Assembly (NCBI GenBank): GCA_019057815.1
Contig: JAHLWR010000014.1
Coordinates: forward strand, 32,001 to 96,000
Direction of reading: 5' to 3'
Length of the DNA: 64,000 nucleotides
DNA from: Candidatus Heimdallarchaeota archaeon
Lineage (GTDB): Archaea; Asgardarchaeota; Heimdallarchaeia; Heimdallarchaeales; Heimdallarchaeaceae
Part shown: positions 5,087 through 14,794 of the stretch, in pieces
Layout: every line of letters begins with the position of its first letter
Position numbering within the stretch: the stretch's first letter is position 1
Made by a program: the position numbers and the translations under genes
The notes under the pieces: generated by a model
Told to the model about the DNA's origin: nothing
The model's database searches: none
Seen by the model: the letters and a program-made list of their open reading frames with translations, nothing else

Positions 5087-5908
5087 TTGCTTGAAGATAT
5101 AACTTTGAAAAGATTTCTAACTGTAAGTGATGGTACCAAGTTAAGGGTTCAAACCTTTGAAAATTCTCCTGCGAGCAGTGAACGAATAAATGTTATAGTT
5201 ATTGGTGGTATGGGCTCCTATATGTTTGCATGGCAAATATTCTTATCGAAAATCATACATGACTATAATGTTATATTTTTAGAAACTAGAGAGAAAGAAA
5301 CAGCTATTCTTGGAACTGAAAATATAACTTTTGCAAGAATAAGAAAAGATATACTAGAAATTATTGAGCAGCTTAATATTAATCTTCAAAAAACTATAAT
5401 GATAACAACCTCAGCAGGAAGCATAGCAACTCTCAAACTTCTAGTTGACCAACACATCCACCCAAAATTATCAATACTTGTATCACCTTTACCTTATAAT
5501 TATATTGGCAAGATAGCCTTCTATTATGGTAGATTACCGCTATTCTGGCATAAAACTGTAACTAAAACTATTTCAAGAATAGGATGCATTTTTGTTAGTG
5601 GTAGAGATAAACTTCAGAGAAAATATATTTTACAAGGTATAAACAGAACGGATTTTAGGAAATATAGAATTAGTACTAGAGATGTTGTAGATTTTAACAT
5701 TCTAAATGAAAATTATGAAACCATTAAGGATAAAATAATCATAATTGGAGCAAGAAAAGATAGAATTCACCCAATCAAATATGTAAGAATGTTAGTAGAA
5801 AAACTACCACAAGCAGAATATTTTGAATTAGAGTATAATTCTGATTCACTTGGTTTAGGACTATATGATATCTTTAAGAAAAAGACAAAAGGGTTCATTA
5901 GTTCATAA
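5087..5908 (+). CDS. Alpha/beta-hydrolase fold protein (divergent paralog 3)
   Basis: VIGGMG, ETREK, TTSAG, GARKDRIH; lacks the C-terminal His. Confidence 0.75.
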   Translation: MLEDITLKRFLTVSDGTKLRVQTFENSPASSERINVIVIGGMGSYMFAWQIFLSKIIHDYNVIFLETREKETAILGTENITFARIRKDILEIIEQLNINLQKTIMITTSAGSIATLKLLVDQHIHPKLSILVSPLPYNYIGKIAFYYGRLPLFWHKTVTKTISRIGCIFVSGRDKLQRKYILQGINRTDFRKYRISTRDVVDFNILNENYETIKDKIIIIGARKDRIHPIKYVRMLVEKLPQAEYFELEYNSDSLGLGLYDIFKKKTKGFISS

Positions 5909-12768: not shown

Positions 12769-12859
12769 TTTACTCGAGTGAATTCACCCAACATCGTTTA
12801 TAACTGTTCCTTCTTCCTTCAGACTAACTAAAATAGAATAACTGGAAATAACAAACATG

Positions 12860-13074
12860 AGTTATTTTCCCCACTTTCCCCAGATTGAAGGGTAGTGGAA
12901 GACAATTTTGAGGACTCTGCCCAACCCAGGAGCGTTTAAGGGAGCATCGCTTAAAGCAGTAGTTTAGGGAGTTTCAAGCTCTGGGATTACACCTCCAACA
13001 CACAGTGTTAGCGGAGGTGAGAGGGTTCATCTCCTCACCGGGACTCATTACTGGAGACAGTGTTATTGAGAACC
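12860..13074 (-). ncRNA. Putative omega-RNA (reRNA) scaffold of the TnpB
   Basis: GC-rich non-coding stretch between the tnpB stop and the right end; hairpins 13044-13070, 12990-13019, 13016-13039, 12925-12985, 12935-12955; position matches TnpB/Fanzor omega-RNAs. Confidence 0.65.
12865..12886 (+). repeat. Right-end inverted repeat TTTTCCCCACTTTCCCCAGATT (two tandem 9-bp motifs)
   Basis: Matches the reverse complement of 14601-14622 at 20/22 positions. Confidence 0.85.
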
Positions 13075-14553
13075 TTAGGCTCTCACTCCAGCTCCGGGGG
13101 TAAGCAGATGACTCTGCTTCGTCTGTAGCCATTGGCTCAAGACAGGGAAGACACGAAAAGAAATGAGTGGAAAAAACTTTCCACTAACTTGGTCTTTAAT
13201 GGAGTTGTATTTTGGTTGCAGAACATATTTTATCAGTCTTTTAGCAATATTCTTCGCCCCATTCAAGTCTGCATTAAGGTTGTACCCACAGGTATGGCAG
13301 ATGAATGTTGGTTGGTTGGGACGGATAGTGTGATAGGATCCACAACGCGAACAATAAGAAGATGTTCCCGATTCACCTATTGCTAGTATCCTGTGCTCCT
13401 CCCATCCTTGTAAAGAGAGCTTGAATTTCAGCAATTCTACCACTCTCCTATAATTCCATTTGTGGACATTTTTACGAGAGTGAGGGTAGAGATTACCCCT
13501 ATAATGACTCTTGCGGATATGAAGGGGGAAGCCTACCACTACATAGAGGTCATATCTCTTGCCAACAGAGAGAATATACTTTACTAACTTGTTGACATAG
13601 GTGTGGTCGGTTAGTTGATGTTCTGTTCTTTGGCGCTTTCTGAGCGATTTAAGTTGGTGGAGAAGACTGTCTCTCTTGTTTACATTCAAACTATGTTTAG
13701 CACTAATTTTCTGCAGTTTAGCGATCTTTCTTTCAGTTTCCTTTAGTAGTTTTTTTCGTGTCTTATCAGACCAGAATCTGATCTCATGACGATTGATAGC
13801 TCCTTTCGGAGTTAACAGTGCACTTACTGCACGCTTGTTGATTCCTAGGTCTATCCCCAGCACAGCTGGAGGACGAGAAGAAGAGTATTTATCTGGAACA
13901 TGAAGCAAGATGAAATGTACCCACCACTCCTTCTTCTTGGGATAGCAGAGCACTTCTAGTGCCTGTAATTTCCCCTGATTTAGGTTATGTTCATGATAAG
14001 GTGAACAAGCTAAAGGTAACCACAATTTCTCGTGTTTGTGAGTGTTGTTCTTCTTTGTATCGAAGGAGTCTCTTATCCCCACCCACCATCGGGCAATGGA
14101 GTTGGAAGGAGAACAAGTAAGAATAAACCTTTTAGCATGTGATAGCTGTGTCCGGGGGATTTTTTTAAGTGTAGGATCTTTAGCAGGCGCTGAGTTATTT
14201 GCTTGTTGACTGTGGTAGATGGCTACAGCGTTCTCTCTACATTCTTGGAACTCATTCTGAGAGCAGCGTGGAAAGCTCTTTTTAAAATCGTGTCTAACTG
14301 TAGGGCGATTGGGTAATTTATTCATCTTGCATGTTGTAAGCGTAAGATGGTCTAGTTTTGCTTTACTCACCTTCTTCTTACCCTTCTTTGTTATTGCTAT
14401 TTGCTCTTCATTGTGGTATATTACTTTGAGGTACTGTTTGATTATTCTCGTGTCTCTCCCCGTAATCTGTTCCAGTCTTTTTCTTTTCCGTGTTGTGATC
14501 ACTTCTGCTTTCACTCTCACTTTTACAGTCGTTCTCACCCCACTTCTCGTCAT
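13075..14553 (-). CDS. tnpB: RNA-guided endonuclease TnpB family, with rearranged (Fanzor-type) RuvC
   Basis: RuvC-I LGIDLG (D235); RuvC-II VVVGFP (G341 in place of E); alternative E394 in IGESGTS; Zn finger CSRC/CHTC; RuvC-III NADLNGAKNI (D429). Confidence 0.9.
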   Translation of the reverse strand: MTRSGVRTTVKVRVKAEVITTRKRKRLEQITGRDTRIIKQYLKVIYHNEEQIAITKKGKKKVSKAKLDHLTLTTCKMNKLPNRPTVRHDFKKSFPRCSQNEFQECRENAVAIYHSQQANNSAPAKDPTLKKIPRTQLSHAKRFILTCSPSNSIARWWVGIRDSFDTKKNNTHKHEKLWLPLACSPYHEHNLNQGKLQALEVLCYPKKKEWWVHFILLHVPDKYSSSRPPAVLGIDLGINKRAVSALLTPKGAINRHEIRFWSDKTRKKLLKETERKIAKLQKISAKHSLNVNKRDSLLHQLKSLRKRQRTEHQLTDHTYVNKLVKYILSVGKRYDLYVVVGFPLHIRKSHYRGNLYPHSRKNVHKWNYRRVVELLKFKLSLQGWEEHRILAIGESGTSSYCSRCGSYHTIRPNQPTFICHTCGYNLNADLNGAKNIAKRLIKYVLQPKYNSIKDQVSGKFFPLISFRVFPVLSQWLQTKQSHLLTPGAGVRA

Positions 14554-14583
14554 TCTAGGATCATTACTTATGTTAGATTTCCC

Positions 14584-14591
14584 TATAAAAA
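14584..14591 (-). promoter_or_regulatory. TATA-like box (TTTTTATA) inside the left end, ~30 nt upstream of the tnpB ATG
   Basis: Sequence and spacing typical of archaeal near-leaderless promoters. Confidence 0.4.
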
Positions 14592-14600
14592 GTTAACTCA

Positions 14601-14622
14601 AATGTGGGGAAAGCGGGGAAAA
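14601..14622 (-). repeat. Left-end inverted repeat of the TnpB element
   Basis: Minus strand reads TTTTCCCCGCTTTCCCCACATT. Confidence 0.85.
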
Positions 14623-14794
14623 TTTACCATGCTTACATTACTATTCAAAAAAAATAAGATGTTTTTAGTTATGCAGAAATAGATGAAAGAGAAGAATAGT
14701 TATCTTCTTTTTTTCAGAAAAAAAGTTAAGCTTATTCCTCCAACTACAATAACTAACCCAGCAATGTAATATAATATGTGTTGGATTTGTTCAA

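Follow-up and report, generated by a model that had tools for sequence, protein, structure and literature searches.

The window analysed here is a stretch of 64,000 nucleotides (nt) from a Candidatus Heimdallarchaeota archaeon (assembly GCA_019057815.1, contig JAHLWR010000014.1, positions 32,001 to 96,000 of the forward strand), and all positions below are those of the window unless a contig or locus is named. On its reverse strand lies tnpB, a gene for a 492-residue protein of the TnpB superfamily in which glycine occupies the canonical RuvC-II glutamate position and an alternative glutamate (Ealt) is found further downstream. We refer to this protein as the Heimdall TnpB and to the mobile element that carries its gene as the Heimdall element. 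The gene and the codons of its putative active site are as follows.

13075..14553 (-): tnpB open reading frame (ORF) of the Ealt (rearranged RuvC-II) type, 492 amino acids (aa), assigned by ORF calling, PF07282, an AlphaFold2 model and Foldseek
13849..13851 (-): codon of D235, the RuvC-I aspartate in LGIDLG (D-L-G, not DPG), invariant in 112/112 homologues
13531..13533 (-): codon of G341, at the canonical RuvC-II glutamate position (YVVVGFP) and the end of beta-4, 111/112
13372..13374 (-): codon of E394, the putative alternative catalytic glutamate (IGESGTS), 6 residues before C401, 112/112
13288..13353 (-): zinc finger (TNB), C401-x2-C404 ... C419-x2-C422, with all four cysteines invariant and a match to PF07282
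13267..13269 (-): codon of D429, the RuvC-III aspartate in NADLN (NADLNGAKNI), invariant in 112/112

Active site and fold of the Heimdall TnpB

In a search against 5.8 billion clustered proteins, 199 homologues were recovered. Conservation was assessed in a set of 112 near-full-length homologues, with identity down to ~30%, and in an alignment of 70 sequences (A1). Besides the residues listed above, T397 and S398 were invariant across the 112 homologues, and A1 had just five invariant acidic residues: D235, E394, D429 and, in the N-terminal half, E101 and E104. In HMMER alignments to Cas12f structures, G341 is paired with the canonical RuvC-II glutamate (iqmEdl), and E394 with the proline in xxPxxTS, the usual motif. 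The initial annotation, which was made from the letters of the stretch, had numbered D235, G341, E394 and D429 in this way and had placed the glutamate 53 residues beyond its canonical position, where a proline is usual; the numbering is correct, and both the conservation and the alignments agree with the relocation. Residues 235-429 of the Heimdall TnpB, and 109/112 family members, fit the published regular expression for 'D{P}G + Ealt' (D{P}G x(120,160) E x6 CxxC ... D; PMC10711439). Because the exchange of glutamate for glycine and the downstream glutamate are conserved across the 112 homologues and A1, they represent a selected feature of the family. By homology with E467 of ApmFz2 and E323 of TvTnpB, E394 is likely to be catalytic and would complete a triad with D235 and D429.

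The AlphaFold2 model built on A1 (pLDDT 86.4, pTM 0.76) places the RNase-H strands beta-1 at residues 229-236, with D235 at its end, beta-4 at 335-342, with G341 at its end, and beta-5 at 389-393. In this topology E394 directly follows beta-5, beside beta-1 and the glycine-ended beta-4, and D429 starts the RuvC-III helix, so that the model would bring E394 close to both aspartates. In rearranged TnpBs the glutamate has been described at beta-5 in place of beta-4 (PMC10691335, PMC10711439), and the predicted topology agrees with this. The best Foldseek matches of the model were AsCas12f and OsCas12f (E 1e-16 to 1e-17, TM 0.53-0.62, ~450-470 columns), followed by ISFba1 TnpB and ISDra2 TnpB, all with probability 1.0. 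Since the alignment with Cas12f and TnpB extends over ~450-470 columns, the N-terminal half appears to be an ordinary WED/REC module, and the earlier description of this half as unusual does not hold at the level of the fold, where AsCas12f, OsCas12f and TnpB align over ~460 columns. As modelled, the protein is a TnpB with the WED-REC-RuvC-zinc-finger architecture that is standard for TnpB and Cas12f.

Pfam assigned residues 368-436 to PF07282 (Cas12f1-like/TnpB zinc-finger, TNB) at 7.8e-13, with 48.8 bits against a cut-off of 26.3. This match, the fold, the conservation and the host together bear out the identification as an Asgard TnpB with a relocated RuvC-II glutamate. Cas12f proteins are the best solved-structure matches by both sequence and fold, and the top NCBIfam match is Cas12f2, in the C-terminal half of the 492-aa protein, which could suggest a miniature type V CRISPR effector rather than a transposon nuclease. 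However, Cas12f2 is matched with 75.9 bits, far under the cut-off of 450 bits, neither the surroundings of the gene nor the rest of the window contains a CRISPR array or tandem repeat, the Cas1 genes of the host genome lie in separate CRISPR-cas loci, and the gene is inside a repeated element with defined ends. We therefore regard a CRISPR effector as extremely unlikely.

The length of 492 aa and a C-terminal extension of ~50 aa had also been pointed out in the initial annotation, and both are confirmed: the extension is conserved (approximately residues 446-478 in A1 and the model), is predicted with high confidence to be folded to about residue 478, and contains an invariant tryptophan, W475. 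Two family members from other Asgard metagenome-assembled genomes (MAGs) carry additional N-terminal segments. P0120 (736 aa) is fused to MarR/TrmB-type winged helices, and P0125 (852 aa) has a MazE/AbrB-like segment.

The host belongs to the same family as two complete Heimdallarchaeum genomes and is thus an Asgard archaeon. Nearly all named homologues came from Heimdall-, Thor-, Hod- or Promethearchaeia, and the clade of long TnpBs is restricted to Asgard archaea. The family was present in 18/41 related genomes, and the two complete Heimdallarchaeum genomes contained 13 and 18 protein matches, some of them fragmentary. On viral contigs, relatives were found only at 25% identity.

Relationship to Ealt TnpBs and Fanzors

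The substitution of the RuvC-II glutamate by glycine or proline, together with an alternative glutamate ~45 residues away, has been described in Fanzors and in 'TnpB2' proteins (Jiang et al. 2023, PMC10530073). Cleavage by the Fanzor2 protein ApmFz2 is lost on mutation E467A, and TvTnpB, an archaeal Ealt protein of Thermoplasma volcanium, is an active nuclease that depends on a target-adjacent motif (TAM) and has no collateral activity (PMC10530073). The ApmFz2 triad D324/E467/D501 has been seen by cryo-electron microscopy, with the glutamate shifted by 50 residues (PMC11832414). The shift in the Heimdall TnpB is 53 residues, and the spacing from glutamate to the last aspartate is 35 compared with 34 between E467 and D501. 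RuvC-II rearrangements are known from two major clades and eight large branches, some almost exclusively archaeal, and TnpB groups linked to Asgard archaea were described in the same study (Altae-Tran et al. 2023, PMC10691335). The RuvC-III motif NADXN, of which NADLN is an instance, characterizes 'derived' TnpBs and Cas12f (PMC10691335). The Ealt active site is already published, under the names TnpB2, RIIr and Ealt, and is not rare.

The distribution of the rearrangement among the closest relatives points in the same direction. When 1.84 billion representatives were searched with a profile, 14,072 matches were obtained at E<=0.001. Among the 96 nearest sequences (at least 340 aa, including five other TnpBs of the host genome), 86 had both glycine and Ealt, and the few sequences with the canonical glutamate fell outside. 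A FastTree phylogeny limited to the 96 nearest cluster representatives and the TnpBs of the genome itself recovered the long Asgard TnpBs as a clade nested within shorter Gly/Ealt TnpBs. The host genome also encodes a second, unrelated TnpB family of 413 aa with glycine at RuvC-II and an alternative glutamate (IVVGEMK ... VDEAYTSQ), located at C12:127541-128023 and C1:96612-97271, and TnpBs with the canonical glutamate at C1:40926, C19:32412 and C33:112402. Because the Asgard clade is nested and a second Gly/Ealt family occurs in the same genome, the rearrangement is ancestral to a large prokaryotic clade and not specific to this lineage. The caution given earlier, that rearranged TnpBs occur elsewhere in prokaryotes, was thus justified both by the position within a larger Gly/Ealt clade and by the published TnpB2/RIIr proteins.

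Yoon et al. (2023, PMC10711439) recognise Fanzors and pro-Fanzors by two features, a DPG motif in RuvC-I and an Ealt that precedes the zinc finger by six residues. In the initial annotation, the loss of the glutamate to glycine with a moved glutamate was taken as the mark of Fanzors and of a prokaryotic subset. The Ealt part of this is indeed shared, but the Fanzor/pro-Fanzor signature also requires DPG, and position 236 was leucine, isoleucine or methionine in 112/112 family members. The DPG + Ealt expression matched none of the 112 family members and none of 86 neighbouring cluster representatives. Against the Protein Data Bank (PDB), the family profile matched Cas12f chains at 1e-18 to 1e-21 and ISDra2 TnpB at 0.045, and no Fanzor chain was found at E<=1. 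ApmFz2 was the 20th match by Foldseek (E 4.6e-11), behind Cas12f and TnpB.

These results bear on whether the protein could be an Asgard 'pro-Fanzor', that is, a close prokaryotic relative or ancestor of eukaryotic Fanzors, with the rearranged site shared through direct descent. Such a relationship would suit a host from the archaeal group closest to eukaryotes, an Ealt that lies six residues ahead of the zinc finger, the recovery of ApmFz2 by fold, and the inverted-repeat ends of the element, which are also found in many Fanzor-carrying eukaryotic transposons (PMC10711439). It is contradicted by the DLG motif and the lack of DPG + Ealt in the family and its neighbours, by a profile that reaches Cas12f at 1e-20 and no Fanzor chain, by the rank of Fanzor2 in the fold comparison, by the much larger prokaryotic clade with Gly/Ealt that encloses the Asgard family, and by the published derivation of Fanzors from cyanobacterial IS607 TnpBs (PMC10711439). 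Descent of this kind is very improbable, and by the DPG + Ealt criterion, profile and fold similarity the Heimdall clade does not qualify as an ancestor of Fanzors. The special bearing on Fanzor origins that had been proposed for the protein is therefore not supported, and an Asgard host alone says nothing about how Fanzors came to eukaryotes.

The mobile element and its predicted guide RNA

In the host genome (3.7 Mb, 95% complete), tnpB is the only gene of a short repeated element with the following features.

12856..14633 (-): whole mobile element, tnpB only, 1778 bp, delimited by the limits of similarity among five full and six miniature copies
14601..14634 (-): left-end inverted repeat, CATGGTAAATTTTCCCCGCTTTCCCCACATT, of an inverted pair of 34 nt that is 79% complementary
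14562..14600 (-): promoter-like leader with TTTTTATA ~30 nt before the ATG, read from the sequence and kept in the miniatures
12856..13145 (-): predicted omega RNA/right-end RNA (reRNA) scaffold, ~290 nt, which overlaps the last ~24 codons of tnpB and runs to the right end
12853-12886: right inverted repeat, within the predicted RNA region
12836..12855 (-): predicted guide segment in the flank directly beyond the right end (3' side), on the model of the TnpB systems of IS200/IS605 and IS607

The GC content of the element is 41-44%, compared with ~30-35% in the flanks. The five full copies are 88-91% mutually identical, and three have intact ORFs while two are degraded. The six miniature copies (~359 bp) consist of the first ~72 nt, including the TTTTTATA box, joined to the last ~290 nt; the box may be an archaeal TATA box, judging from its sequence. 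Within the left-end repeat are two tandem motifs of ~9-10 bp, TTTTCCCCAC, with R-CAT of the flank preceding them, and this motif occurs 24 times in the host genome compared with one or two times for a control pattern. The ratio of nonsynonymous to synonymous substitution rates (dN/dS) among the three intact copies is 0.14-0.15. The element is thus under purifying selection and has been mobile in multiple copies.

The insertions were confined to one short motif. All copies have (R)CAT before their left end, and their right end reads ...AACTCAT plus a variable base, mostly G. The CAT before the left end and the terminal CAT were present in all of the insertions examined, which numbered at least 15. 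For the copy on contig 10, the empty site in a genome of the same genus has a single CATG where the host has CATG-element-CATG. These data fit about equally well with insertion 3' of CAT, exchange at an AT core, or a 3-4-bp duplication. At the site corresponding to the contig-26 copy, this same-genus genome (C45:8340-8480) has TATG, 17 unrelated nt and TCATG between identical flanks, which may be an excision footprint or the remnant of an extreme internal deletion. The same CATG...CAT(G) termini are found in a family of 45%-identical relatives in the complete genome of Heimdallarchaeum endolithica, in which the inverted ends (~28 bp) differ in internal sequence from those of the Heimdall element. 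Most of the 45%-identical copies in the complete Heimdallarchaeum genomes contain exactly one in-frame TAG near the C-terminus, inside the tblastn match, and the similarity may extend beyond this stop as far as the RNA region.

What the miniatures keep at the right end is exactly the final ~290 nt of the element. Among element copies this region is better conserved than the ORF (91-93% vs 88-90%), the synonymous rate (dS) is lower in codons 441-492, which overlap it, and it is more stable than shuffled sequences (z = -2.97). In 15 copies from six genomes, compensatory changes were found in 12 of the 71 consensus pairs; shuffles gave 2.6 +/- 1.1 (0/500) and slid controls 2-5, and five helices held most of the support. 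A conserved, structured RNA region is therefore present at the right end. By analogy with related systems, this RNA would be expressed, its guide would be located just beyond the right end, and the TAM would be the (R)CAT(G) that precedes the left end.

Taken together, the locus is probably an intact, non-autonomous insertion sequence containing only tnpB, with an Ealt active site and an omega/reRNA at its right end, that would maintain itself by homing, i.e. by cutting the empty allele. The 3' end of the RNA would read into flanking DNA, which supplies the guide, and the ribonucleoprotein would then cut the allele lacking the element beside (R)CAT(G), its likely TAM. Repair of the break with a filled copy as template would let the element persist in the population, and transposition itself would be supplied in trans by a separate enzyme.

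Several observations weigh against this explanation. The NCBIfam model guided_TnpB (NF040570) scored 73.7 bits, under its cut-off of 100 bits; the score is that of a divergent subfamily, and membership in the TnpB superfamily is not in doubt from the other features. For the two long-range helices closing on the RNA 3' end, covariation gave no support. The additional preference for a purine in the left flank is weak, and a TAM of 3-4 nt is short. Finally, the copies are ~10-12% divergent, and as no partner transposase was found, the element may no longer be mobile.

An alternative is that the TnpB is dead or domesticated, for instance as an RNA-guided DNA binder or regulator, and that G341 simply reflects the loss of the catalytic glutamate. 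The canonical glutamate is gone, there is no transposase nearby, some family members are fused to DNA-binding domains, and inactivated, exapted TnpBs are known (PMC10691335). Yet none of D235, E394 and D429 varies within the family, which is what a working triad would show, and the same layout is active in ApmFz2 and TvTnpB (PMC10530073). Moreover, a fixed host gene would not be expected to have multiple copies in varied contexts and miniatures, as a mobile element does. A dead or domesticated protein is therefore improbable. The Heimdall TnpB is very probably an active nuclease, and the activity proposed in the initial annotation gains support from the invariant catalytic residues, the three intact paralogues with dN/dS of 0.14-0.15 and the structured RNA region. 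Ealt enzymes have lacked collateral activity in published work (PMC10530073), a property of practical interest for editing. The value of this one would be as a compact (492 aa), mesophile-derived and probably active Ealt nuclease with a predicted scaffold of ~290 nt and a short candidate TAM.

Downstream of the element, on the same strand as tnpB, is a gene for an amidohydrolase (PF07969/PF01979; 11146-12768 (-)). Since this gene starts 88 nt beyond the right end, the predicted guide is situated in its leader, and read-through from the element could affect its expression.

Candidate mobilising enzymes and comparison with known systems

Candidates for the enzyme that moves the element were sought in the host genome and around related copies. 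No DDE transposase or Cas1 gene adjoined any of the Heimdall-clade copies examined, and clustering of neighbour genes at 80 homologous loci from named Asgard MAGs revealed no recurrent neighbour transposase for the Heimdall clade. Three types of enzyme encoded in the host genome were considered and rejected. The Cas1 genes are located beside Cas2/Cas4 genes or a repeat-associated mysterious protein (RAMP) gene and so belong to separate CRISPR loci. The two genes for Y1 TnpA are both in unrelated IS605 units with canonical TnpBs. As for a serine TnpA of the IS607 type, the intact resolvase-like ORFs have their catalytic serine at the N-terminus, which is the wrong domain order, and none adjoins a copy. 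A larger autonomous partner was also not found, as all paired matches to the end motif in the host genome were accounted for by the five full and six miniature copies. In the Heimdallarchaeum genome, a short AT-rich end motif performed no better than its control.

Other mobile units were seen in the course of these searches. Two IS605-type units (C8:9736-13104 and C4:62155-65523) are 96% identical and contain a Y1 tnpA of 140 aa overlapping a canonical-Glu tnpB of ~421 aa; the former adjoins highly repetitive sequence that is present on many contigs. At 25 loci from Thorarchaeota MAGs (L094-L145; e.g. L094:1074-5891 (-)), TnpB relatives with 34-39% identity are accompanied by a divergently oriented ORF of ~1600 aa. 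Neither Pfam nor NCBIfam matched this ORF, and its sole PDB match, to the primase-polymerase pRN1 ORF904, was marginal (E 0.075). Since the pair of TnpB and ~1600-aa ORF is multi-copy within single MAGs, it may constitute a larger mobile unit. The motif GTTCACTC has been reported downstream of Asgard TnpBs associated with aCas1 (Altae-Tran et al. 2023, PMC10691335). In the Thorarchaeota homologue P0057, tnpB is located between inverted GAGTGAAC / GTTCACTC arms (L027:3946-3967, 5716-5737), and there is no Cas1 gene in this locus.

At the protein level, the closest counterparts in design are TvTnpB and the TnpB2/RIIr proteins, which share with the Heimdall TnpB a glycine at the canonical RuvC-II position, an alternative glutamate ~50 residues downstream and just ahead of the zinc finger, NADXN as the RuvC-III motif, archaeal hosts and, as predicted here, a guide RNA at the right end. 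Compared with the ~350-450 aa of TnpB2/RIIr proteins, the Heimdall TnpB is longer at 492 aa, has a conserved C-terminal extension with an invariant tryptophan and belongs to an Asgard-restricted clade. TvTnpB is found in an element with IS605 hairpin ends and a Y1 TnpA, whereas the Heimdall element has inverted ends of ~34 bp and a CAT(G) site. Fanzor2 (ApmFz2, PDB 9B0L) and the cyanobacterial pro-Fanzors resemble the Heimdall TnpB in the ExxxxxxCxxC position of Ealt, the spacing from glutamate to aspartate and the overall TnpB fold. They differ from it in that the Heimdall TnpB has DLG and not DPG, no detectable profile similarity to them and no IS607 serine TnpA, and, unlike Fanzors, it has a prokaryotic host and neither a nuclear localisation signal nor introns. 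The closest solved structures by profile and fold are those of Cas12f (AsCas12f 8DZJ/7WJU, OsCas12f 9NZQ, CnCas12f 8HR5), with which the NADXN motif and the zinc finger are shared. In contrast to the Heimdall TnpB, however, Cas12f retains the canonical RuvC-II glutamate and works with CRISPR arrays, while the Heimdall tnpB is transposon-borne and has no array.

At the level of the element, a single tnpB and a predicted right-end guide RNA are also features of the IS1341 group (TnpB-only IS200/IS605 elements), its protein-less derivatives and IS607. Further likenesses to IS200/IS605 and IS607 include the absence of a long target duplication, a short fixed insertion motif and miniature non-coding derivatives. 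IS200/IS605 elements end in asymmetric hairpins, whereas clear inverted ends with CAT(G) on either side are seen in the Heimdall element and in the relatives at 45% identity. Likewise, IS607 elements are described as being without inverted repeats (PMC6188088), but the Heimdall element has them. Symmetric inverted ends and Asgard hosts are shared with the TnpBs associated with DDE transposases and aCas1 (Altae-Tran et al. 2023). The combination of inverted ends, CAT(G), no transposase, and miniatures that keep the putative promoter and the predicted guide RNA is uncommon and falls outside the descriptions of IS200/IS605 and IS607. As this architecture is common to relatives at 45% identity, the mobilising enzyme is worth seeking in Asgard archaea. 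What is new here is therefore an Asgard member of the known Ealt/TnpB2/RIIr kind, with the transposon architecture as its uncommon part. A more speculative reading, which we hold to be doubtful, is that these elements represent a distinct and undescribed class of transposon, with ends built of tandem ~9-bp motifs, strictly strand-specific insertion at CAT(G) and possibly a new enzyme acting in trans. If true, this would give prokaryotes a counterpart of the eukaryotic inverted-repeat transposons in which Fanzors are found.

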